Origin: an uncultured bacterium
GTDB lineage: Bacteria; Acidobacteriota; HRBIN11; JAKEFK01
Direction of reading: 5' to 3'
DNA length: 64,000 nt
Assembly (NCBI GenBank): GCA_963777505.1
Contig: CAVZQN010000004.1
Location: 96,001 to 160,000 of the forward strand
Positions 1 through 57,004 of this stretch are shown here, in pieces. The notes under the pieces were generated by a model. It worked only from the letters and a program-made list of their open reading frames with translations, was not told where the DNA came from and did not search any database. The translations under genes and the position numbers were made by a program. Within the stretch, counting starts at the first letter, position 1; each line of letters begins with the position of its first letter.

Positions 1-594
1 TACTCTTGCTGCGGAAATAGCTCCCCAACCAGGAATTCCGGGATAGCCATCTGAGCTGTCACCAACAAGTGCCAGGTAATCAGGTATTGATTCCGGCAAA
101 ACGCCGAATTTTGCAACTACACCTTGCTCATTCAATAATCGCTTCCGGCGTCTATCGAGTTGAACCACTCGATCACCGGAAACGCATTGAGCCAGATCTT
201 TGTCCGGAGTGCAAATCACAACTTGCTCAACGCGGGAATCTGCGGCACCAATCGACGCTCCTGCACCAAGCGCATCATCTGCCTCAAATTCAATCATTGG
301 CCAAACGATAATATTCAACGATGCCAGCGCTTCCTCCAGTACTCTGAATTGCGAATATAAATCAGGCGCAATTCCCGTACCGTCTTTGTAATCGGGCCAT
401 AAATCGTTTCTGAAAGACTCAATTACATAGTCTGTTGCGACGGCGATGTGAGTTGCTTCAGTCAGAAGTTGAAGCATCGAAATAACGACACCTCGTGCAG
501 CAGCAATCTCTTCTTTCTTGCTATTCCTTCGTTTGGGGATTGCGTAATAATGACGGAATAGCTCGTAGGTCCCATCAACAAGATGAATTTTCAT
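1..594 (-). CDS. Stand-alone-type 5'-3' exonuclease / flap endonuclease (PIN + H3TH), runs off the left edge
   Basis: Not in the ORF track. Manual translation from ATG at 594 gives MKIHLVDGTYELFRHYYA...SFRNDLWPDYK...EFEADDALG...TPDKDLAQ...DYLALVGDSSDGYPGIPGWG, the motifs of Pol I 5'-exonuclease/FEN domains. Confidence 0.9.
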   Translation of the reverse strand, partial: MKIHLVDGTYELFRHYYAIPKRRNSKKEEIAAARGVVISMLQLLTEATHIAVATDYVIESFRNDLWPDYKDGTGIAPDLYSQFRVLEEALASLNIIVWPMIEFEADDALGAGASIGAADSRVEQVVICTPDKDLAQCVSGDRVVQLDRRRKRLLNEQGVVAKFGVLPESIPDYLALVGDSSDGYPGIPGWGAISAARV

Positions 595-710
595 ATAGCA
601 AATACGTTATAAGGTGAAAACTAAGCATAAACAATAAATGAAGCATCGCAAAGTCCTCTACGAATGATATAAGTCTGTCATGCTAAAATGGATTCATTAA
701 GTTTTCCTTA

Positions 711-43277: not shown

Positions 43278-43967
43278 ATGGGTACCTCTCGCATACTAGT
43301 TGTTGATGATGAACCTCAGATCACTCGTGTACTGCGCCGAAGTCTTTCTTCTCAAGGATATGAAGTGCAGGTTGCCGAAGATGGCGAAGAAGCTCTTGCC
43401 GTCTTCAAACAATGGAAACCTGAACTTGTTATTACGGATTTATCAATGCCTGGAATGGGCGGACTTGAATTGTGCCGGCGTATTCGAAAAATTTCGAGTA
43501 TTCCAATAATTGTTTTGTCAGTGAAAGGTGAAGAATCAACAAAAGTCGAAGCTCTGGATACAGGAGCGGATGATTACATTACCAAACCGTTCGGTGTCGA
43601 TGAACTCTTTGCACGTATCCGGGTTTCGTTGCGTCATGGAGCCGTGCCTCATGTTGAAGAAGGAACAAAACTGGAAATTGGAGATTTTAAGATAGATCAA
43701 GCCACACGCAACGTAACTGTCCGGAATAAGGAAGTTCATCTAACCCCGAAGGAGTACGAAATCCTTTTGCATTTCTTACGGAATCCAAATCGCATTCTCA
43801 CGCATCGAGCTCTGTTAGGCGCGCTTTGGGGCGGAGAGTTTGTAGATCAAAATGAATATCTTCGTGTGTTTATAGGGCAGCTTCGTAAGAAAATAGAACT
43901 TGATCCTGCAAAACCGCAGTACATTTTGACCGAACCCTGGGTCGGCTACAGATTCAAAGTTGAATAA
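43278..43967 (+). CDS. kdpE: KdpE response regulator (OmpR family)
   Basis: VVDDEPQI, TDLSMP, KVEALD.GADDYITKPFG..EL, YLRVFIGQLRKKIE.DPA.P.YILTEPWVGYRF; kdp context. Confidence 0.93.
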   Translation: MGTSRILVVDDEPQITRVLRRSLSSQGYEVQVAEDGEEALAVFKQWKPELVITDLSMPGMGGLELCRRIRKISSIPIIVLSVKGEESTKVEALDTGADDYITKPFGVDELFARIRVSLRHGAVPHVEEGTKLEIGDFKIDQATRNVTVRNKEVHLTPKEYEILLHFLRNPNRILTHRALLGALWGGEFVDQNEYLRVFIGQLRKKIELDPAKPQYILTEPWVGYRFKVE

Positions 43968-44030: not shown

Positions 44031-45137
44031 GTGGTTATCTTATATGGAACTGCCGGCTTAGTGCTGGCAGTTTTGCTTCTATTTCCATTCCGGGAACAGA
44101 TCAATTCCACTCCCGTTGCTTTAACTTTTCTTATTTTAGTTCTGCTTATGGCAGCAATCTTTGGCACATTCCCGGCTATTGTGATGTCGATAGCTTCCAT
44201 GCTTTGTTTTAATTATTTCTTTTTGCCTCCTTACCATACGTTCACAATTACAGACCCACAGAACTGGATTGCACTCTTTGCTTTTCTTGTGACATCAATC
44301 ATCGCAGGAAGTCTTTCTGGAAGAGTGAGGAAACGAGCTGAAGAATCAGAACGTCTTTATCTGGAGCTTCAAGAAATGTTCAAAAAAGCAAGTCAGGCTG
44401 ATGCAATTAAGCAACGAGAGCAGTTGAAGTCAGCTTTACTGGATGCTGTAACTCATGATTTGAGAACTCCTTTGACATCGATGAAAGCTGCAGTTACTAC
44501 GTTGTTAGCAGAGAGTGAATCGACTTTGGATGTTGAAGGCCGGCGAGAAATGCTGGAAGTCATTGATACTGAGATTGACCGATTAAATCATCATCTCGAA
44601 GGCCTGATCGAAATTGCGAAACTTGAAGCGGGAGCAATGCAGCCTCGCCGCATGTGGTCAAGCATTGAAGAAATCATTTCTAATACTCTCGCGCGTGCGT
44701 CAGGGATCACAGCTTCTCACATAATAAAAGTCGAATATGAAGAGAACTTGCCACCAGTTCGTATCGATGAAAAAGCTATTGCAGAAGTCTTGTATCTTTT
44801 GATTGAAAACGCCACAAAATATGCTCCGGTTGAGTCTGAGATTAACGTAAAAGTACAACAAACTGCTGATTTCCTGAAGGTAATTGTCGAAGATCAAGGT
44901 GCAGGGATTCCGGTTGAACTTCGGGAAAAGGTTTTTGACAAATTTTTCCGTTTTGATCCTGTCAATCTTTCGCCGCGTCCGCGTCTTGTTGGGCTCGGAA
45001 TGGGGCTTGCAATTTCGCGTGGAATTATTGAAGCACACTCAGGAAGGATATGGGTTGAAGATACCTCAAGCGGCAAGGGGACTCGCATATGCTTCACCCT
45101 TCCTTTGATGCAATCGGAAGTAAAAGTAGAAGTTTGA
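44031..45137 (+). CDS. Minimal KdpD-type histidine kinase (DUF4118-HisKA-HATPase only)
   Basis: FNYFFLPPYHTFTITDPQNW, intact H-box VTHDLRTPL, ENATKY, DQGAGI, GLGMGLAI. True start may be ATG 44018 (MKKWSGYL/YGT) with one extra base. Confidence 0.88.
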   Translation: MVILYGTAGLVLAVLLLFPFREQINSTPVALTFLILVLLMAAIFGTFPAIVMSIASMLCFNYFFLPPYHTFTITDPQNWIALFAFLVTSIIAGSLSGRVRKRAEESERLYLELQEMFKKASQADAIKQREQLKSALLDAVTHDLRTPLTSMKAAVTTLLAESESTLDVEGRREMLEVIDTEIDRLNHHLEGLIEIAKLEAGAMQPRRMWSSIEEIISNTLARASGITASHIIKVEYEENLPPVRIDEKAIAEVLYLLIENATKYAPVESEINVKVQQTADFLKVIVEDQGAGIPVELREKVFDKFFRFDPVNLSPRPRLVGLGMGLAISRGIIEAHSGRIWVEDTSSGKGTRICFTLPLMQSEVKVEV

Positions 45138-45148
45138 TTCTGCCTTCA

Positions 45149-45188
45149 TACTTACAATATCTTTACGGACTCTTTACTACTTCTTTAC
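45149..45188 (+). promoter_or_regulatory. Putative KdpE binding site (TCTTTAC direct repeats, 11-bp period)
   Basis: TCTTTAC at 45160, 45171 and 45182 plus TACTTAC at 45149; resembles the tandem TTTA(T/C)A half-sites of KdpE boxes. Confidence 0.6.
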
Positions 45189-45220: not shown

Positions 45221-47890
45221 GTGGAAAGTGAACGTCCGGATCCTGAGCGTTTGTTAAGGCAAATAAAGGCAGAAGAACGAGAGTCGTCTCGTGCAAAGCT
45301 AAAACTGTTTTTCGGACCCTATCCCGGAGTTGGAAAAACATACGCCATGCTTGAAGCAGCTCGGGAAAGAAAAAAGCAAGGCGTTGATGTTGTTGTCGGG
45401 ATTGTTGAAACGCATGGCCGCCCTGAAACAACTGCTTTATTAAAAGACATGGAGATCCTCCCCAGGAAGGAAATTCCTTACAAAGGTGTGGTTTTAAAAG
45501 AATTCGATCTGGATGCAGCTCTCGCACGAAAGCCAGAAATCATTTTGATTGATGAACTCGCCCATTCAAATCCTTCAGAGAGTCGGCATGCGAAGAGATG
45601 GCAGGATGTGGAGGAGCTTCTAAATGAAGGAATTTCCGTTTATACAACATTGAATGTTCAGCATTGGGAAAGTTTGAATGATGTTGTAGCGCAAATTACA
45701 GGGATCAAAGTTCGTGAAACGGTTCCGGATAGTTTTCTTGAGAAAGCTCATGAAGTGGAACTTGTTGATTTGCCTCCTGCGGATTTATTAAAACGTCTGG
45801 CGGAAGGGAAAGTATATATGGGTGATCAGGCGATCCGCGCAGCAGAAAACTTTTTCCAAACAGGAAACTTAATTGCACTGAGAGAACTTGCATTGCGTCA
45901 TACCGCGGAACGTGTGGACGCAGAAATGCAAGAATTTAAGAATCGATATGCAATCACAAAGGTCCTTCCGGTACGAGAAAGGCTTTTAGTAGGGATTACT
46001 GCCTCGCCAAATTCGCGCAGATTAATTAGAGCGACATTGCGGCTGGCTACAAGTTTGCGATGCGAATGGATTACGCTTTACGTTCAAACTGCAGAGCACG
46101 AAAAATTACCTGCGGATCAAAAAGCGCGAATTATCGATACGCTTCGTCTTGCTGAGAGATTGGGTGGAGAAACCGCAGTTCTGACTGGACAAGATGTTTC
46201 TGAAGAGTTGCTCGCGTACGCAAGAGAGCGAAATGTTACAAAGATAGTCTTAGGAAAACCCTCCAGGCCGCGTTGGAAAGAAATTGTTTTTGGATCAACA
46301 GTCAATGAGATTGCGCGGCGTTCAGGCGAAATTGATTTGTATGTGATTAGCGCAGCAAATCTGTCAGATGAAAAAGTCGTTCGCTATAACCGGGCGGAGG
46401 AGCGTCCATCAAATCGTGGAATCGTTGTCGCAATTCTCCTTATTGCGCTTTGTACGGTTTTAGGATGGGCGCTGATTCAATATCTCGACCGCGCAAATCT
46501 AATCATGTCTTATCTGCTTGCCGTTGTATGGCTCTCTTATAAATATGGAAGACGTACGGGAATTGTTGCTTCCGTTTTGAGTGTACTGTGTTTTGATTTC
46601 TTTCTCGTTCCTCCTTACCTGACCTTCCGTGTTACAGACACTGAATACATCATCACTTTTGTTGGGATGCTTGTTGTTTCACTTTTTATCAGCACAATCA
46701 CCGGCCGTCTCGGTTCACTTGTTAAAGCCACCAGAGGGAGAGAAAGAAGGTTAAGAACTTTGTACAAATTAAGCCGGACACTTGCTGAAATTCCTGAACC
46801 GATGGCGATGCTTCAAGCAGCATGGCAACAGCTAAATGATTTTTACAAAATGCCTGTGATTTTGCTAACACCTGACACCACAGGAAAGTTAAGAATTAGC
46901 GCAGGGGATCCGGAGAGATTTGAATTTGCTGGGAATGATGTTCAAGCTGCTGAATGGGTTTTTCGAAATGAAGAAATTGCAGGACGCGGCAGCCAAACAC
47001 TCGCTGGCTCTAAGGGGACCTATATTCCGCTTCGAGGGAGAGAAAAGTCTGTAGGAGTTCTTGGGATCCGCTTAGAGCAAGATTCCGATTTGATTGACCC
47101 CGAACAACTTCGTTTAATGGAAACTTTTGCAGTAGTCATTGGAAGTGCGCTCGAAAGCAAAGAATTATCCGAACAAGCTGGAAAAGCAACAGCATCAATG
47201 GAAGCCGAAAGGTTACGGAATCTTGTGTTGCGATCATTTTCTTTTGATTTAGCCGCACCTTCTCAACAGATTGTGGAGGTAGCGAGCCATTTAAGGAATT
47301 CTCCCGATTTGTCTCAAAATAAAATGCAGGAAGCGATCCAATCTATATGTGAGAATTCGGAACACATTTTTAAGGTTGCATCGAATCTTCCTCATTATCT
47401 GGAAGAGGAAATTCCAGTACTCTCCGATAACATTCTTCCCAGTAACATAGCGCAGGAACTCAATGAAGATGTTCCGCTTTCCATATATCTCAGCACGGAA
47501 AGGATTTTATTTTTCCCTGCTGAAACAACCAGGAAAGAAGTGTTTGAATCGTTGATTCACACCTTAAAGCTTTCGAATGAAAGAGAAGCATTCAAACTAC
47601 TTGCTGAAAGAGAAGAAGCGGGCGGAATTTTGATCAGACCAAATGTTGCAATTCCTCATACAACAATTGATGGTGTTGATGGTGTAAAGGCTTCATTAGG
47701 AATTCAAAAGACAGAAACCGGTACTCCTTTCTTCTGGTTGCTGTTTGTTTCAGGTCCAGATGCAATTCGTCAGCATCTCGAGTTTTTGAAGAGTGCAGCA
47801 CAAACGCTTTCTGACGAAGTTCTGGGAGAATTGTCGAATACAGATAATTCAGGAAAAGTGCTGAGAATATTAGCTGCAAGCGGGGTTTGA
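45221..47890 (+). CDS. kdpD: KdpD-like sensor (KdpD N-domain, USP, DUF4118, GAF, His-less DHp) fused to a PTS EIIA domain; no HATPase
   Basis: GPYPGVGKT Walker A, IDELAHSN, KRWQDVEELL, LRELALR. H-box reads RSFSFDLAAP. C-terminus EREEAGGILIRPNVAIPH...LLFVS...HLEFLK is EIIA-like. Confidence 0.88.
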   Translation: MESERPDPERLLRQIKAEERESSRAKLKLFFGPYPGVGKTYAMLEAARERKKQGVDVVVGIVETHGRPETTALLKDMEILPRKEIPYKGVVLKEFDLDAALARKPEIILIDELAHSNPSESRHAKRWQDVEELLNEGISVYTTLNVQHWESLNDVVAQITGIKVRETVPDSFLEKAHEVELVDLPPADLLKRLAEGKVYMGDQAIRAAENFFQTGNLIALRELALRHTAERVDAEMQEFKNRYAITKVLPVRERLLVGITASPNSRRLIRATLRLATSLRCEWITLYVQTAEHEKLPADQKARIIDTLRLAERLGGETAVLTGQDVSEELLAYARERNVTKIVLGKPSRPRWKEIVFGSTVNEIARRSGEIDLYVISAANLSDEKVVRYNRAEERPSNRGIVVAILLIALCTVLGWALIQYLDRANLIMSYLLAVVWLSYKYGRRTGIVASVLSVLCFDFFLVPPYLTFRVTDTEYIITFVGMLVVSLFISTITGRLGSLVKATRGRERRLRTLYKLSRTLAEIPEPMAMLQAAWQQLNDFYKMPVILLTPDTTGKLRISAGDPERFEFAGNDVQAAEWVFRNEEIAGRGSQTLAGSKGTYIPLRGREKSVGVLGIRLEQDSDLIDPEQLRLMETFAVVIGSALESKELSEQAGKATASMEAERLRNLVLRSFSFDLAAPSQQIVEVASHLRNSPDLSQNKMQEAIQSICENSEHIFKVASNLPHYLEEEIPVLSDNILPSNIAQELNEDVPLSIYLSTERILFFPAETTRKEVFESLIHTLKLSNEREAFKLLAEREEAGGILIRPNVAIPHTTIDGVDGVKASLGIQKTETGTPFFWLLFVSGPDAIRQHLEFLKSAAQTLSDEVLGELSNTDNSGKVLRILAASGV

Positions 47891-47891
47891 C

Positions 47892-48635
47892 ATGCAATTT
47901 AAGAAACTCATGGGTTACATAGCATCGGTGGGAACAATCGCTCTGACGGTTTTACTTTTCAAGCGCATTTTCTCGGATGCTACACCGGCAACCGTCGCTC
48001 TTATACTCGTTGTTGAGGTGTTGTTCGCAGCAACTTTTGGCGGATTCGGTCCTGGACTTTTAGCAGCTGTAATAGCAGCATTGTCATTCAATTTCTTTTT
48101 CCTTCCTCCTTATGGAACTTTCACGATTGCCCATCCTGCAGATGTTGTATCGTTTTTTGTCTTCCTTTCAACTGCAATTGTTGTGAGCAAATTATCCTCT
48201 GCCGTGCGACAACGTGCAGTAGAAGCAGAGCGCAGAAAAGATGAAGTAGAGCATCTTTATCAGTTTGCAAAGGTACTGATTGAAACTCCCGATACTCTTG
48301 AAGGTGCATCATCCATCGCCAGCAAGATCGTTGAAATTTTCCGAGTAAAGTATGCAGGCATCTATGTTCCTGACAAAAGCGGCAAATGGAAACATGTATC
48401 AGTGAGTTCAAATGAGCTTAAGGACATAGCTCTACCTCAGCCGGAAACATTACGAAGCAACACAATCGCCGAGATGATTGATGAATATGGGAAGGGGGTC
48501 CAATACACGGTTATGAACACTCCTTCTCGAAACATTGGCGTGATAGCGTTGCGTGCACCTGATCTGTCCAAGGATACGATCGCAGCCATTGCAAGTCTCG
48601 TTGCTCTTACTGTTGAAAGAAATCGGTTAATCTAG
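47892..48635 (+). CDS. DUF4118 + GAF-like membrane protein (third KdpD fragment)
   Basis: FNFFFLPPYGTFTIAHPAD, coiled coil, GAF-like tail ending IASLVALTVER; starts 1 nt after the kdpD-like stop. Confidence 0.82.
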   Translation: MQFKKLMGYIASVGTIALTVLLFKRIFSDATPATVALILVVEVLFAATFGGFGPGLLAAVIAALSFNFFFLPPYGTFTIAHPADVVSFFVFLSTAIVVSKLSSAVRQRAVEAERRKDEVEHLYQFAKVLIETPDTLEGASSIASKIVEIFRVKYAGIYVPDKSGKWKHVSVSSNELKDIALPQPETLRSNTIAEMIDEYGKGVQYTVMNTPSRNIGVIALRAPDLSKDTIAAIASLVALTVERNRLI

Positions 48636-48727: not shown

Positions 48728-51104
48728 TTGATTGATCAGACGATTTCGCATTACACCATTCTCAAAAAGCTTGGTGGCGGTGGAATGGGAGTCGTGTATG
48801 AAGCGGAGGATCTTAGCCTCAAACGTCATGTTGCACTCAAATTCCTTCCTGAATCGGTAGCTGAGACTCCGGAGACGCTTGAACGTTTCCGGCGGGAAGC
48901 ACAATCAGCATCTGCGCTTAATCATCCAAATATCTGCACGATATACGAAATTGGTGAACACGATGGTCGTCCTTTCATTGCAATGGAGATGATGAAGGGT
49001 GAGACCTTGAAGCATGCGATTGATGGAAAGCCAATGGAGATTGATACCGTGCTCGATCTGGGGGCACAAATTGCAGATGCGCTCGATGCTGCGCATACGG
49101 AAAGGATTATTCACCGTGACATTAAGCCGGCAAACATATTCGTCACAGAACGTGGCCAGGCAAAGCTGCTGGATTTTGGATTGGCAAAACAGGGAACAGC
49201 AGCGACTGGAGATACTGAAATGCCAACGGCCAGTACTCCGGCACAATTGACGCAAGCTGGTTCTACTCTGGGCACATTTGCGTATATGTCCCCCGAACAA
49301 GCGCGCGGCAAAGTGCTTGATTCGCGTACCGATCTTTTCTCTTATGGAGTTGTGCTCTATGAAATGGTAACCGGCACCCAACCTTTTGTTGGCAGCAGTA
49401 CAGGCGAAGTATTGGAAGCTATTTTTACAAAGGTACCAGTGTCGCCTGTGCGCTTAAATCCGAATATTCCTGTAGAACTAGAACGCATCATATATAAGGC
49501 GCTCGAAAAGGATCCCAATCTGCGATACCGAAGCGCCGCTGATATTCGAACTGATCTTCAACGATTGAAGAGAGACACTCTTTCCAGCGTTCCAGGCAGC
49601 ACTGTTGCAAGAGATACAGCTACAAAAATCCACTCAGCAAAAAAGTCACGGACACTCTGGGTTGGTGTCACAGCTGCAGTGGCAACAATAGTTCTGCTTG
49701 TAGTTTTCTGGCTAGGCCAAAAACCGAAGACCGCAGTGCAAACTACTGGTCCGATTTCGATAGCCGTGCTCCCGTTTGTAAACATGAGTGCGGATAAAAA
49801 TCAGGAATATTTTTCCGATGGCCTTTCAGAACAATTGCTAAACGATCTGGCCAAAACTCGTGGCTTGCGCGTAATCGCAAGAACTTCGTCTTTTCAATTT
49901 AAGGGAAAGAATGAAGACCTTCGTGTGATTGGTAAAAAATTGGATGTTGCAAATATATTGGAAGGAAGTGTACGGAAAGAGGGGAATAAAGTGCGAATTA
50001 CTGCGCAATTAATTCAAACTTCAGATGGATCCCATTTATGGTCTGATACCTATGATCGAGAACTAAATGATGTTTTTGCGGTGCAGGATGATATTGCACG
50101 ATCCGTAGCTGGAGCATTGAAGGTCACGCTTCTAGGACAAACAGCAAGTAGTTCAAAGTCACAAAATGCGGAAGCATATAACCTTTACCTGCAAGGTCGT
50201 TACTTCCAAGATCGAAGCACCATGGAAGACCTTCAGAAGGCGACAAACTCTTTTGAGCAAGCACTTCAACTTGAGCCTGGCTATGCTCTGGCCCACGCAG
50301 GCTTAGCCAGTATTTACTTTAGGCAGGCAGGTTTGGGCCACCTCGCCGCTGTTGAAGGCTTTGAAAAAACGCGGAATGAGGTAGAAAAAGCGCTGAAGAC
50401 CGATCCAAATTTGGCCGAGGCCTACGCAATGCTAGGGCGGGTCCAATTGAATTATGACTGGGATTGGGCCGGTGCCGATGCTTCCTTTCAGAGAGCGTTG
50501 GAACTGGAACCAGGGAACGCGAGAGCAGTTCGGAACGCTGCCGTTCTTGCTGGTACTCTTGGCAGGTTTGAAGAAGCCATTGAACTGAATCTGAAAGCAA
50601 TCGACCTCGATCCTCTAAACATCGGAAGCTATTTGAATCTCGCAAGCTGGTACCACTCTGCCGGCCGGTTGAAGGAGTCAGAGTCCACAACGGCGAAGGC
50701 CTTGAAGCTAAATCCACAATTTCCTGGTGCACACTATCGGATTTTCCTTCTCTACCTGGACACAAATCCGCAAGCGGCACTTGCTGAGATAAAGCGCGAA
50801 ACAGAGCCAATCTGGCGCGACCAAGGTCTCGCTCTGGTTACCTATGCGATGGGGAATAAAAAAGAGGCGGACAAAGTACTTGACAAAGTATATTGAAGAT
50901 TCCCAGACTATCGCGGCTTTTCAGATCGCCCAGATTTATGCCTACCGTCGTGAAACGGATTACACATTCGAATGGCTTGAACGTGCTTATCAACAACATG
51001 ACGGTGGTCTTGCCGAAATGAAAGGCGATCCGTTGCTGCGCAACATCGAAAATGACCCACGATATGCGGCATTCCTGAAAAAAATGAAACTGCCTCTGGA
51101 TTAA
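48728..51104 (+). CDS. Hanks-type Ser/Thr kinase with TolB-like (SIAVLPF) and TPR domains; apparent frameshift near 50880
   Basis: [34 protein letters not shown]...EYFSDGL, TPR repeats; C-terminus in ORF 50844-51104 (DP.L...DPRY). Confidence 0.9.
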
Positions 51105-51134: not shown

Positions 51135-51174
51135 TCTTTACGAACTTTTTATTCCCCTCTTTCTCCTTTCTTAC
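51135..51174 (+). promoter_or_regulatory. Second putative KdpE box upstream of the porin-kdpFABC unit
   Basis: TCTTTAC 51135, TTTTTAT 51146, TCTTTCT 51158, TTCTTAC 51168 (about 11-bp period). Confidence 0.5.
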
Positions 51175-51207: not shown

Positions 51208-52300
51208 ATGAATAGACTCCTACTACTCGTCTCGCTTTTACTGAGCTCAATTTGTATAGCACAAACTGAAAATGAGGGTGAGGCTGAAGAACCTCCCGCT
51301 GTAACCTTTAGCGGATTTTTGGAAGCTTATTACTCTTATGACTTCGATAATCCCGATGATCATAAACGGCCATTTTTTCTTTACTCGTATAACAAGCACA
51401 ATGAAGTCAATATCAATCTTGCTTACCTTAAGGCTGCTTACAATTCGGAAAGAGTTCGCGGCAATCTTGCCCTTATGGCTGGTACATATGCAAACGCAAA
51501 CCTTGCTGCAGAATCAGGAGTTTTAAAGAATATTTATGAAGCCAATGGAGGCATCAAGGTTTCTCAAGATCGGGATCTCTGGATCGATGCAGGAATTTTT
51601 GGTTCTCATATTGGTTTCGAAACCGCAATTGGACCAAGCAACTGGACATTAACCCGCAGCATTCTTGCTGAAAATTCTCCATACTACGAGTCCGGCGCAA
51701 AAGTTTCTTACACATACTGATGGGGGAGAGTGGTTTTTTAGCGGATTAATCTTAAACGGCTGGCAACGGATTGAAAGACCAGAAGGGAATAATACTCCAG
51801 CATTTGGAACTCAATTAACCTATAAGCCGAGCGATACATTCTTCTTCAACTACAGCACTTTTATCGGAAATGATAAACCAGATGATGCAAAGCAATGGCG
51901 TAATTTCCATGACTTTTATGCGATAGCTCAGCTCACTCCAAAATTCGGGATCACCGCAGGATTCGATATTGGTTTTGAAGAAGAACCGCCAGGCGGTGAG
52001 GGCTATAACACCTGGTGGACACCGATCGTGATCGTGAGATATTCAGCAACAGACAAAATCAACATTGCTGCAAGAGCGGAATATTACAGCGATGAAGACG
52101 GAGTGATTGTTGCTACAGGAACACCAAATGGATTCAAGACAGCCAGTTACTCAGTCAATGTTGATTACGCATTTACCGATCATATTCTCTGGCGAATTGA
52201 GGGACGAGGATTTCACAGCGAAGATGACATTTTTAACGTGACCGAAGATCCATCCTCATCCAATTTTGCAATGACTACATCGCTGTCTTTGACATTTTGA
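51208..52300 (+). CDS. Outer-membrane beta-barrel porin (BBP2/OmpL-like); apparent frameshift near 51712
   Basis: Signal peptide, YYSYDF, GIF.SHIGFE, AENSPYYE.G, NGWQ, AR.EYY.D, C-terminal F; ORFs 51208-51720 and 51665-52300. Confidence 0.82.
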
Positions 52301-52348: not shown

Positions 52349-52435
52349 ATGTGGGATCTTTTTTTTATCGGATTAACAATCGTTTTTTTCTTACTCAGTC
52401 TCGCTTACGTGCGAGGATGTGAGAAATTGCAGTAG
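52349..52435 (+). CDS. 28-aa single-TM peptide upstream of kdpF (Kdp accessory candidate)
   Basis: SD AGGAG, MWDLFFIGLTIVFFLLSLAYVRGCEKLQ*; below the ORF-track cutoff. Confidence 0.75.
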   Translation: MWDLFFIGLTIVFFLLSLAYVRGCEKLQ

Positions 52436-52445
52436 GAGAAACATT

Positions 52446-52535
52446 ATGGGTCTCGAATCAATTTTAGGGCTGACCGTTTCTGTATTGCTGCTTTTCTATT
52501 TGGTCTACGCGTTGTTGAGTCCCGAGAGGTTCTAA
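52446..52535 (+). CDS. kdpF: K+-transporting ATPase subunit F
   Basis: SD AGGAG, MGLESILGLTVSVLLLFYLVYALLSPERF* (YL.YALL.PE.F signature); stop 1 nt before the kdpA ATG. Confidence 0.92.
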   Translation: MGLESILGLTVSVLLLFYLVYALLSPERF

Positions 52536-52536
52536 G

Positions 52537-54337
52537 ATGACAATCAACGGCTGGCTACAAATTCTTTTTTATTTTCTATTGATTCTGTTGGTGACAAAAC
52601 CAATTGGCGTATTCATGGCACGTGTTTTTAACCGTGAAAAAACATTTCTCGATCCCGTTTTGAGACCAATTGAAAGGTTGATTTATAAATTGACCGGGGT
52701 TGATGAGAATCGTGAAATGCGTTGGACGGAATACGCGGTTGCGATGTTGCTGTTTAGCGTTGTTTCCATGGTTGTTCTTTATTTCATGCAACGGTTGCAG
52801 CATATTCTGCCTTTCAATCCGCAAAACTTAGCTGCGATTAATGAACATTCGTCTTTTAATACAGCAGCATCTTTTACGACAAACACAAACTGGCAGAGTT
52901 ATGTGCCTGAAGTAACGATGAGCTATCTCACACAGATGGCAGGCCTGGCTTATCACAACTTCATTTCTGCGGCTGTTGGAATTGCACTTGCAATCGCTTT
53001 CATACGCGGGATAGCCAGACGGGAAATGAATACGATTGGAAATTTCTGGGTTGATACGGTACGAGCAACTCTGTGGGTGCTGTTGCCGTTTTGCGTTGTT
53101 GGTGCTCTGTTTCTAGTTTCGCAAGGCGTGGTTCAAAATCTGAACCCATACGACACGGTTCAGCTTGTTGGAAAAACAAACGACTGAAGTCGATAAAAAG
53201 GATGAGGCAGGAAATGTCATTACAAATCCGGATGGCACCACTGCTAAGAAATCAACACAAACAATCGCTCAAGGCCCGGTAGCATCTCAAGAATTCATAA
53301 AAGAATGGGGAACGAATGGCGGCGGATTTTTCAATGCAAATAGTTCACATCCATTCGAAAATCCGACACCGTTTTCAAACTTAATTGAAATGTTTGCGAT
53401 TTTTGCGATTTCAGCTGGACTCACTTACACCCTAGGTCAGAATGACCGGCTCACAAAAACATGGATGGGCAGTATTCGCCGCAATGGCATTTCTCTTTTT
53501 TGTAGGCGTCACGGTAGCGTACTGGGCCGAATCGAATGGAAATCCATTGTTAACCGGTACAGATCAAAGCACGAGTGCAACGCAATCCGGCGGCAATATG
53601 GAAGGGAAGGAAATTCGATTTGGACTTGCGAATAGTGCTTTGTTTGCGACCGTAACCACGGATGCGTCCTGCGGCGCAGTAAATTCGATGCACGATTCCT
53701 ACACCCGCATTGGGCGGATTGGTACCGCTTTCAAACATCATGCTCAGTGAAGTGGTCTTTGGCGGAGTCGGCGCAGGAATGTACGGAGTACTCATCTATA
53801 TAGTGCTCTCGGTTTTCATTGCAGGATTAATGGTTGGCAGAACGCCAGAATATTTAGGAAAAAAGATCGAATCCTATGACGTAAAGATGGCAATGCTGAA
53901 TATTCTGATTTTTCCTCTCTTCATACTCGTTCTTACTGGCATTTCTGTAGTTGCATCATTTGGATCTATCCAGTATTTGGAATCCTGGGCCCCATGGGCT
54001 AAGCGAAGTTTTGTATGCCTTCACTTCTGGAACTGGAAATAACGGATCGGCTTTCGCAGGAATTTCAGCGAACACTCCCTGGTATAACACGACGATCGGC
54101 CTAGCGATGCTGTTTGGCCGCTTCTTCATGATTATTCCAGTGCTGGCTTTAGCAGGAAATCTCGCACGGAAGAAAACAGTGCCAGCAAGTCCAGGCACTT
54201 TTCCAGTAACCACGCCTTTATTCACTGTCTTACTTGTAAGTGTGATTTTGATTGTCGGTGCACTGACATTTTTTCCGGTACTAAGCCTTGGACCTATTGT
54301 GGAACATCTGTTGCTGTATGCCGGAAAAACATTTTGA
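52537..54337 (+). CDS. kdpA: K+-transporting ATPase subunit A (about 4 apparent frameshifts)
   Basis: [77 protein letters not shown] across consecutive ORFs. Confidence 0.93.
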
Positions 54338-54347
54338 GGTTGTATAA

Positions 54348-56393
54348 ATGACAACGAAAGCAAAGAAACAAGCGATTTGGAATACGCAAATTGTAACGCG
54401 TGCTCTGATTGATTCCTTTAAGAAACTAAATCCACGGATCATGATGAAGAATCCTGTCATGTTTGTTGTGGAAGTGGGGAGTGTAATCACAACGATCTTG
54501 TTGATTCGGGACCTCATGGCAGGCACCGGTGGTATCGGGTTCGCACTTCAAATCACGCTCTGGCTCTGGTTCACAGTATTGTTTGCAAATTTTGCTGAAG
54601 CGATGGCTGAAGGCCGCGGAAAAGCGCAGGCTGAAAATCTAAAAAAAGCGCGAACCGAAATCTAACGCACATCGCGCTTTTGCCAAAGGAGAAACTGAAA
54701 CAGTTCCCGCTCCAAAATTACGCAAGGATGATGTTGTTATTGTTTCGGCCGGCGAATTCATTCCAAGTGATGGTGAAATTATTGAAGGTGTCGCTTCAGT
54801 GGATGAATCTGCAATTACAGGTGAATCTGCTCCCGTTATCCGTGAAGCAGGTGGAGACCGCTCTGCAGTTACAGGCGGAACCCGTGTCTTATCAGACCAA
54901 ATCAAAGTCCGAATCACATCGAATCCAGGTGAGACTTTTCTTGATCGAATGATTGGACTGGTTGAAGGAGCGACACGACAAAAGACGCCGAATGAAATCG
55001 CATTAAATATTTTGCTTGCAGGTTTAACCATCATCTTTCTTGTTTGCTGTCGTTACTCTGCAACCTTTTGCGATTTATTCAAAAGCACCACAATCCATTT
55101 TTGTATTGGTTTCACTGCTGGTTTGTCTGATTCCAACAACAATCGGTGGTTTGCTTTCAGCAATCGGTATTGCTGGAATGGATCGTTTAATTCAACACAA
55201 TGTTCTTGCAATGTCTGGACGATCCGTAGAGGCTGCAGGAGATGTAAATACGTTGTTGTTGGATAAAACGGGAACGATCACACTTGGCAACCGTCAGGCA
55301 TCCGAATTTATTCCGCTTCCTGGAGTTGATGAAACCACGCTTGCTGATGCTGCTCAGCTTTCTTCGCTTGCGGACGAAACTCCTGAAGGTCGAAGCATCG
55401 TTGTATTAGCAAAAGAAAAATATAAAATGCGTGGCCGTGAGCTGGCACCGCACGAAGCTCGTTTCATTAAATTCAGCGCACAAACACGGATGTCGGGTGT
55501 TGATTATGATGGCCGGATCATTCGAAAAGGTGCAGCGGATGCAATCGAGAAATTTGTTGTCAGCAATCAGGGTGCTGCTCCAAAAGAGTTGCGTGAAATT
55601 GTAGAACGCATTGCAAAAGCCGGCGGCACACCACTTGTTGTCGCGGAGAATGCAAAAGCACTCGGTGTCATTCACTTAAAAGACATTGTTAAAGGTGGAA
55701 TGAAAGAACGGTTTACTCAACTGCGGGCGATGGGAATTAAAACAATCATGATCACCGGTGATAATCCACTCACTGCCGCTTCTATCGCAGCTGAAGCCGG
55801 TGTCGATGATTTTCTGGCTGAAGCAACACCTGAAGAAAAAATGACGTTGATTAAGAAGGAACAAACTGAAGGCAAACTTGTAGCAATGACTGGTGATGGT
55901 ACGAACGACGCTCCTGCGCTGGCTCAAGCCGACGTTGCTGTCGCAATGAATACAGGGACGCAAGCTGCGAAAGAAGCAGGAAATATGGTGGATCTGGATT
56001 CGAATCCTACGAAGCTAATTGAAATTGTTGAGATCGGGAAACAGCTCTTGATGACGCGCGGAGCTCTGACAACATTTTCAATTTCAAATGATGTCGCAAA
56101 ATACTTTGCGATAATTCCTGCGATGTTTTCTGCTGCCTTTCCGGTTTTGAATGCATTAAACATCATGGGCTTACGCACGCCTCAATCAGCAATTCTTTCT
56201 GCCGTAATTTTCAATGCGCTAATTATCATCGCTTTGATCCCACTCGCTCTTCGCGGTGTAAAATACAGGCCGACTTCCGGCTGCTGCTCTATTAAGGAGG
56301 AATCTGGTGGTTTATGGAGTTGGCGGCATAATCGTTCCATTTATAGGCATCAAAATCATTGATGTTTTCATCAATGCAATCGGACTTGCGTAA
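54348..56393 (+). CDS. kdpB: K+-transporting P-type ATPase subunit B (several apparent frameshifts)
   Basis: [57 protein letters not shown]; ends ..INAIGLA* at 56393. Confidence 0.93.
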
Positions 56394-56397
56394 CGAA

Positions 56398-56430
56398 TTT
56401 GCAGCGCCGGCGGGCCGCCGGCGCTACAAA
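56398..56430. repeat. GTAG-type REP variant hairpin between kdpB and kdpC
   Basis: TTTGCAGCGCCGGCGGGCCGCCGGCGCTACAAA; the reverse strand reads TTTGTAGCGCCGGCGG... Confidence 0.65.
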
Positions 56431-56444
56431 CAGGAGAGGTGAAT

Positions 56445-57004
56445 ATGAAAAATCTGAAGATTGCAATTTTAATGACGATTGTAACAACGCTTTTTCTTGG
56501 AATCGATTTATCCACTCGTAGTAACAGGTCTTGCTCAAGTTTTGTTTCCTGACAAAGCGAATGGACAATTAATTAAAAGATAAAAATGGAGCTGTTATCG
56601 GCTCTCGAATCATCGGTCAACCATTTTCATCCTCCAAATATTTTCATTCACGACCTTCGGCCGCGGGCGCAGTCGGCTATGATGCAGGAGCTTCCAGTGG
56701 TTCGAACCTTGGCCCCACAAACCAGAAGCTGATTGACCGCGTAAAAGCTGATGTGGAAAAACGACAGGCGGAAAATCCAGGTACGCCCGTTCCAATTGAT
56801 CTTGTCACTACATCTTCATCAGGACTTGATCCGCACATTTCTCCGGCTGCTGCAGAATTTCAGGTTCCACGAATTGCACGTGAACGTGGTATGAGTGAAG
56901 AGGAACTCCGAAAGCTTGTGGCCAAACATACTGAGGGCAGGCAATTTGGATTTTTAGGAGAACCACGGGTGAATGTACTTTTGTTGAATTTGGATCTTGA
57001 TTAA
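56445..57004 (+). CDS. kdpC: K+-transporting ATPase subunit C (apparent frameshifts near 56505 and 56580)
   Basis: [79 protein letters not shown]. Confidence 0.9.

Follow-up and report, generated by a model that had tools for sequence, protein, structure and literature searches.

The stretch studied here, which we call the window (64,000 nucleotides of contig CAVZQN010000004.1, from an uncultured bacterium of the Acidobacteriota), codes for a KdpD protein of 889 amino acids (aa) in which an EIIA domain of the phosphotransferase system (PTS) stands in the place of the catalytic and ATP-binding (CA) domain of a histidine kinase. This KdpD-EIIA fusion is real and conserved, selection acts on both of its catalytic sites, and it is apparently undescribed. 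The best explanation, to which we would give an even chance, is that within a split Kdp system the fusion acts as the serine-kinase chain and that phosphorylation by the PTS would gate the shut-off of the K+ pump by this kinase. All coordinates are positions in the window, and residue numbers are those of the fusion protein (Table 1).

The fusion gene starts with GTG. It runs without interruption, as the original prediction, made from the letters of the sequence, had said, and a genome search found in it the sole KdpD N-domain of its own genome. The Pfam scan also returned the series of domains that had been expected (KdpD-N, Usp, DUF4118, GAF, and PTS_EIIA_2), with no match to HisKA or HATPase_c at E<=0.1. 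The input domains of the histidine kinase KdpD, that is, KdpD-N, Usp, the transmembrane (TM) region and GAF, are all present. The profile of the full-length sensor kinase KdpD (NF007793) aligns over residues 1-691 with 674.8 bits against a cut-off of 1123, its phospho-His and CA domain being missing from the fusion, while that of the KdpD-like non-kinase sensor (NF038185) aligns over 5-377 with 390.8 bits against a cut-off of 550 and lacks the TM region, GAF and EIIA, which the fusion has. The fusion is placed outside the histidine kinase KdpD family, and the label "sensor histidine kinase KdpD," under which public databases name these proteins, is wrong for them. An AlphaFold model, built from a 31-row alignment whose first row (P0002) differs from the window protein by 7 substitutions, has a mean pLDDT of 66 and a pTM of 0.31. 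It contains a helical hairpin (residues 627-692 and 700-730) resembling a dimerization and histidine phosphotransfer (DHp) domain, as well as a confident C-terminal domain, and its N-domain was matched by Foldseek to the KdpD N-domain structure 2R8R.

A search with residues 620-889 found the same PF00359 fusion in 33/35 homolog clusters, with 45-98% identity across the junction region; the two clusters without it are shorter (682 and 707 aa), and two of the homolog clusters carry the NCBI label Acidobacteriota. The fusion is present in 4/7 genomes of the order, its own genome counted, and the subfamily to which it belongs (subfamily A) in 4/401 genomes of the phylum that were searched, all four from its own family. 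A chimeric join or an indel artifact is ruled out because the junction is common to these 33 clusters and to three other genomes of the family, which also bears out the earlier statement that local indel errors could not have created the domain swap. Reads form no part of this evidence, as one DNA read run (word share, 0.05) gave no cover over the junction. A metagenome scan with the single fusion protein gave no matches, and a second one gave 3 short contigs, which do not show a partner kinase. In a scan of a genome collection, the matches were full length in 3/49 loci and restricted to the helix region in the remainder, and no KdpD+EIIA cluster was among the matches listed by ESM Atlas.

The wider family can be sorted into several types. 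A and A2 have a pseudo-DHp followed by EIIA (~890 aa); in type B (39 clusters, one labeled Elusimicrobiota) the DHp is deleted and EIIA comes directly after the GAF helix (~790-830 aa); type C (4 clusters, one labeled Omnitrophica) has the pseudo-DHp without EIIA (~730 aa); and type S comprises short soluble KdpD-N/Usp-like/EIIA proteins with no TM region, GAF or DHp. The subfamily A alignment holds 31 of the 33 fusions; left out are P0022, which is partial, and P0025, which is broken at its N terminus.

The position of the phosphorylated His is occupied in the fusion by F675 (codon TTT), which aligns to H673 of KdpD in E. coli K-12 DNA and falls on the exact codon given by the original prediction. 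Throughout subfamily A, this position of the H-box is F (13/31) or Y (18/31) and never His (0/31), the Arg at H+3 is changed to Ala, and the Thr at H+4 is lost, both in 31/31. With neither a phospho-His nor a CA domain, no histidine autophosphorylation is possible, and the fusion is, as far as its residues tell, dead as a histidine kinase. Helix 1 of the pseudo-DHp is conserved (mean identity, 0.80) and helix 2 is drifting (0.42). When the pseudo-DHp is aligned as a profile with the partner kinase, the two are colinear, though the match is weak (probability, 1.4; E, 0.036).

The N-domain of KdpD has been described as an atypical serine kinase that phosphorylates S162 of KdpB and stops the pump (Silberberg 2024, PMC11018627). 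According to the same source, this activity requires in E. coli KdpD the Walker A motif, W39/R190 and D109/E110, it is set by the domains that follow (TM/GAF for K+, Usp for c-di-AMP), and its control is called open. Aligned to E. coli KdpD, the fusion has the corresponding residues, namely Walker A G38/K39/T40, Y41, Walker B D111/E112 (45551-45556) and R192. G38/K39/T40, an aromatic residue at 41, D111/E112 and R192 are found without exception in 31 A, 2 A2, 38 B and 4 C proteins and in 32 canonical KdpDs; the position of E. coli W39 is Y or F throughout these sequences, including 32/32 of the canonical controls. In Walker A, the first Gly is followed by an unusual Pro in 22/31 proteins of subfamily A. 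Both Walker motifs are present in 8/8 soluble S forms, and the TGES loop of KdpB is intact in the window, in 3/3 family relatives and in 8/8 S-type loci. As a serine kinase the fusion is thus very probably active. The original prediction had seen in it a pseudo-kinase K+ sensor with PTS input: the loss of autophosphorylation stands and the PTS input is plausible, but the serine-kinase site is intact.

Control by c-di-AMP through the Usp domain was considered and rejected. The motif of c-di-AMP-binding KdpD Usp domains, SXS-X20-FTAXY (Moscoso 2016, PMC4686210), is absent from the Usp domain of the fusion, which reads TAS-X20-WITxY. Its region I (R270xxxR274-X8-WITLY) is closer to the E. coli-type motif RXXXR-X8-W. 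A diadenylate cyclase (DAC) gene is present in the genome.

That the C terminus is a PTS EIIA domain, as had been claimed, is supported by the PF00359 match, with a modest 33.2 bits over a cut-off of 27, and by structure comparison, as the best non-KdpD Foldseek matches of the C-terminal domain are the PtsN/EIIA-Ntr structures 3URR, 4GQX, 2A0J and 1A6J; phmmer also matched the fused EIIA to 3URR and 4GQX. The PtsN equivalog model TIGR01419 gave 17.6-23 bits and did not reach its cut-off of 138.7, and the EIIA score with NCBIfam FruA is far under the cut-off. H813 (codon CAT) lies exactly where it had been placed. R797, E798, P812, H813 and H852 are invariant in 31/31 proteins of subfamily A, in which 20/132 EIIA columns are invariant. 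Of the active-site residues, the phospho-His is kept in 82/82 of all fused EIIA domains and the Arg in 81/82, with the second His kept in 31/31 A, 4/4 A2, 28/39 B and 1/8 S proteins. This pattern indicates strong selection on the active site of EIIA. The EIIA-domain tree is poorly resolved, and therefore we claim no donor; in it the fused EIIA does not group, with weak support, with the PtsN of its own genome. EIIA domains are also found fused to proteins of the Na+/H+-exchanger family and to DAC/DacZ-type proteins (P0077, P0081, P0103, P0123, P0167, P0139, and P0184), so that the machinery of both K+ and c-di-AMP repeatedly carries EIIA.

KdpD-EIIA fusions of separate origin were found in the soluble S forms. 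A KdpD domain occurs in 108/301 genomes of the phylum, among them in 9 frames of 548-596 aa, of which one (G015) is a plain short KdpD of 385 aa and 8 are KdpD-N/Usp-like/EIIA proteins adjoining kdpABC. In the N-domain tree the S proteins group with the short KdpDs and not with the membrane fusions, and a single origin of both was rejected by the approximately unbiased (AU) test (p-AU, 0.0001; 61 rows, quick tree, LG+G4). On these data the KdpD-EIIA fusion is taken to have arisen at least twice, although, with the EIIA tree so little resolved, module swapping may account for this instead of two de novo fusions. In 7/8 S loci a kinase of ~610 aa lies beside the S protein; the one examined with Pfam, in L103, has a HAMP-PAS-HisKA arrangement and comes with a sigma-54 activator, and at least in this locus a sigma-54 system takes the place of KdpDE. 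Among the membrane forms, A+A2+B are one clade on residues 20-650 (FastTree support, 0.905; 105 rows), while on KdpD-N+Usp alone their support of 76 neither shows nor rejects the clade. The group A+A2+B+C is well supported inside the full-length KdpDs (0.997 on residues 20-650 and 98 in a second tree). In a search with Usp-TM-GAF, the top 70 among the best 120 of 639 matches were without HisKA/HATPase, the first canonical KdpD being rank 71. A plausible order is loss of the His and the CA domain, gain of EIIA and then loss of the DHp. Six clusters of KdpD-like proteins (P0250, P0254, P0268, P0272, P0275, and P0277; 643-644 aa) end right after the GAF domain, all in the same place, the ends being either real stops or fragment ends.

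No paper on a KdpD-EIIA fusion, membrane or soluble, was found in the open-access PMC and bioRxiv literature, in keeping with the earlier remark that no characterized protein of this architecture was known. In PMC11018627 and its seven supplements the words "EIIA" and "PTS" and six motifs of the family occur 0 times, and no class heading of supplementary file 5 names EIIA; these negatives cover file 4 and the long cells of the supplements in part, and may therefore miss motifs of the C terminus and rows further down. The closest known system is the "truncated DHpCA" class reported in that paper, which likewise has a membrane KdpD with an intact serine kinase and no histidine-kinase output, together with a separate TM histidine kinase and KdpE, a combination that we met in 4/4 genomes; such split serine-kinase/histidine-kinase chains are described there as common in Acidobacteriota. 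The class chain, as presented there, ends after the truncated DHp, whereas here EIIA replaces the CA domain; the class partner kinase has a GAF domain, which is missing from the partner here, where the locus has a TM-GAF-like gene as a third component. The PtsN-KdpD interaction of E. coli and Rhizobium (Luttmann 2009 and Mork-Morkenstein 2017, as covered in PMC8534201 and PMC3665714) likewise joins an EIIA-Ntr-like protein of a regulatory PTS with KdpD, beside a DHp-derived helix. What these sources report is an effect on transcription that is exerted by way of the histidine kinase; in the fusion, the link is covalent, there is no histidine-kinase activity, and EIIA is kept where the DHp is gone. 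The soluble S-type proteins share with the membrane fusion a serine kinase, Usp and a C-terminal EIIA at the end of the kdp operon and differ from it in having no TM region, GAF or DHp and in grouping with short KdpDs.

In the proposed mechanism, KdpE, fed by the neighboring short histidine kinase, would induce kdpFABC and the fusion gene together. Enzyme I (EI) and HPr would phosphorylate H813 according to the phosphoenolpyruvate (PEP) and nutrient state, and the phosphorylation state of EIIA would gate the serine kinase within the same chain or dimer, with the pseudo-DHp helix as a dimer stalk and spacer. Pump shut-off would thereby be set by both K+ and metabolic state, and, by analogy with Proteobacteria, unphosphorylated EIIA may favor K+ uptake in that it keeps the kinase inactive. 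PTS control of shut-off is favored by what the EIIA-bearing forms have in common: EIIA sits on three frameworks (A, B, and S) whose sole common core is KdpD-N plus Usp and which, in the A and S loci, stand beside a pump with an intact TGES loop. The selection on the EIIA site and the EI/HPr/PtsN relay in the genome make PTS input plausible. The fusion gene lies 3' of kdpC in 3/4 family genomes (G001, G002, and G006), which is the position reported for serine-kinase chains in PMC11018627, where these are described as mostly keeping their place behind the genes of the pump; in the fourth locus, that of the window, it is placed differently and has its own KdpE-box-like repeat. A broader and more tentative proposal, somewhat short of an even chance, is that the PTS has been connected to the serine kinase of KdpD more than once in bacteria, the relay from PEP through EI and HPr to the EIIA His gating Ser phosphorylation of a P-type K+ pump.

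Several observations weigh against gating of the serine kinase by the PTS. Helix 1 of the pseudo-DHp is more conserved than the TM region or GAF (0.80 versus 0.65-0.66), which fits a partner-binding role, and the pTM of 0.31 means that domain packing is not readable from the AlphaFold model. In 31/31 proteins of subfamily A, I, V or M stands in place of the Thr in the "gST" loop of EIIA, a Thr that is kept in 51/51 other fused EIIAs and 90/94 comparison EIIAs; the EIIA of subfamily A also lies on a long branch and, from these features, may be phosphorylated poorly. Of the EIIA-bearing forms, A and S are the ones whose pump context was covered, and the group tested with AU was named after the tree had been seen. 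To these can be added that a short kinase without a GAF of its own lies with kdpE in the locus in 4/4 genomes. This last point, like the EIIA domain of subfamily A following directly on a conserved pseudo-DHp, would suit a different reading, in which EIIA is a tethered PtsN that works in trans, on the short kinase's DHp, and so adjusts the phosphorylation of KdpE and the transcription of the kdp genes, possibly through a pseudo-DHp/DHp heterodimer and with the serine kinase independent of EIIA. Free PtsN binds the DHp of KdpD and stimulates the other protomer, as stated in a review (PMC8534201). We consider this reading, which is the main rival and comes nearest to the idea of the original prediction, rather unlikely in view of the 39 B-type clusters that lost the DHp and kept EIIA, of the 8 S-type proteins without DHp, 7/8 of which stand beside the unrelated ~610-aa kinase, of the same short kinase pairing with a plain KdpD-N/Usp partner in other Acidobacteriota (L083, L084, and L086), and of the free PtsN in the fusion's own genome. 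Because the DHp is absent from these 39 and 8 forms (the latter being also without TM and GAF), the E. coli PtsN-KdpD analogy drawn by the original prediction, PtsN there raising kdp transcription from the DHp of KdpD, fails as a general model. In subfamily A, the tethered-PtsN and pump shut-off models are non-exclusive.

It is also conceivable, if quite improbable, that EIIA docks on KdpB or Kup according to its phosphorylation state, recruiting the serine kinase or modulating transport. Free EIIA-Ntr inhibits TrkA through direct binding (as reported in PMC3665714), EIIA fusions to Na+/H+-exchanger-family proteins exist, and Kup-like genes share the locus in G001, G006 and L028; the stretch 36,000-58,000 of the window has no Kup gene, and this reading partly overlaps with the best explanation, both acting on the pump. 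We judge it no more probable, indeed a shade less so, that the EIIA of subfamily A is no longer a PTS substrate and serves as a structural cap or as a permanent mimic of unphosphorylated PtsN on what would otherwise be an ordinary "truncated DHpCA" KdpD. The Pfam score of 33 bits, the Thr replacement in 31/31, the long branch, a mean identity of 0.55 and the related C-type proteins that do without EIIA all agree with such a degenerate domain, but R797, E798, P812, H813 and H852 are invariant in 31/31 while most columns vary, the pattern expected of a working phospho-site.

If the broader proposal of repeated wiring holds, the PTS would be a third class of input for the KdpD serine kinase, beside K+ and c-di-AMP, and this would suggest that the free PtsN of Proteobacteria affects KdpB inhibition and not just kdp transcription. 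With these fusions, the PTS suggests itself as an input that acts directly on a serine kinase whose control is described as open (PMC11018627). The fusions offer three test systems in a single chain, namely a membrane form with the pseudo-DHp, a membrane form lacking the DHp and a soluble form, and in each the coupling of K+ pumping to nutrient state can be tested with a single His mutation. They also give a handle on the role of EIIA-Ntr-type proteins in K+ homeostasis outside Proteobacteria. As KdpB Ser phosphorylation is the likelier output, the kdp-transcription read-out suggested by the original prediction could miss the effect.

TABLE 1 Features of the KdpD-EIIA fusion and of its locus in the window
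Feature	Position	Residues	Strand	Evidence and remarks
kdpE-like response regulator	43278..43967		+	Best NCBIfam match PRK10529, under cut-off
Short histidine kinase, DUF4118-HisKA-HATPase_c, THDLRTP	44031..45137	368 aa	+	Pfam; intact, no GAF match
Triple TTTAC direct repeat, 11-bp period, KdpE-box-like	45162..45188		+	Directly upstream of fusion gene
KdpD-EIIA fusion open reading frame (ORF)	45221..47890	889 aa	+	GTG start, no interruption
KdpD N-domain, PF02702	45290..45916	24-232	+	Pfam, 318 bits
Usp domain	45977..46324	253-368	+	Pfam
DUF4118 four-helix membrane domain	46424..46714	402-498	+	Pfam, AlphaFold model
GAF_3 domain	46808..47155	530-645	+	Pfam; Foldseek match to E. coli KdpD GAF 4Y2F/4QPR
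Pseudo-DHp hairpin	47183..47410		+	Phe675 at 47243-47245; alignment, AlphaFold model
PTS EIIA (Fru/Mtl/Ntr-type), in place of CA domain	47498..47875	760-885 (Pfam)	+	R797, H813 (47657-47659), H852
Stand-alone DUF4118 + GAF-like protein	47892..48635		+	In all four family loci, the other three being L013 2005-2793, L014 1194-1961, L015 2201-2995
Second KdpE-box-like repeat	51137..51152		+	Ahead of porin-kdpFABC unit
BBP2 porin gene	51208..52300		+	Pfam; in two frames
Unnamed hydrophobic ORF	52349-52435	28 aa	+	In tandem ahead of kdpF-like ORF
kdpF-like peptide	52446..52535	29 aa	+	Named by position and resemblance
kdpABC	52537..57004		+	Frameshifted in assembly; KdpB TGES loop ~54817-54828

The short kinase, kdpE, the TM-GAF-like gene and kdpABC are co-located with the fusion in 4/4 genomes. 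The short kinase, which is probably the kinase of KdpE and would supply the transcriptional output, adjoins the fusion gene and had been overlooked by the original prediction; its ORF seems frameshifted near the end in G001. In G004 a short kinase gene was detected without pump or KdpD-N, but it lies at a contig end and no inference is drawn from it. The stand-alone DUF4118 + GAF-like protein may supply the GAF missing from the short kinase, and its gene is preceded by a KdpE-box-like repeat in two loci. The 29-aa ORF before kdpA we take to be a putative kdpF from its position and resemblance, and a similar pair of small hydrophobic ORFs is present in G001, G002 and G006. The frameshifts in a Ser/Thr kinase-TPR gene (48728-51104), the porin gene and kdpA/B/C are probably assembly errors. 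KdpA of the window is 72-74% identical to those of two other Acidobacteriota loci and 53-56% identical to those of its own family, which suggests that the pump genes have probably been replaced while the fusion was retained.

EI, HPr and free PtsN are clustered in the genome at C6:159-164 kb, with neighbors that look like rpoN, hpf, hprK, rapZ and EIIA-Man. This regulatory PTS cluster (L016, G000:C6:155000-172000) is complete and adjoins the rpoN-like gene. A search of the genome for PF00359 gave no more than two such domains, and HPr was found in 5/5 relatives searched.

The repeat TTTAY-N6-TTTAY occurs 3 times in the window, as two overlapping copies before the fusion gene and one before the porin-kdpFABC unit, and it also matches upstream of E. 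coli kdpF. It was found in 11/20 loci scanned, mostly ahead of kdp or kup genes, with none in 9/20. The repeats are not enriched in number, either in the window (3 versus 0.61 expected; 6/100 shuffles reach 3) or genome-wide (68 doubles versus 77 expected and 1 triple versus 0.21 expected). It is their position, together with the E. coli site, that tentatively suggests them as putative KdpE boxes. Kup-like genes are found in the same loci (L024 8861-10777, L026 7392-9305, L015 from 10622, and L028 from 3077), and four TTTAY units lie ahead of that in L026; kup, too, may therefore be under the control of KdpE.

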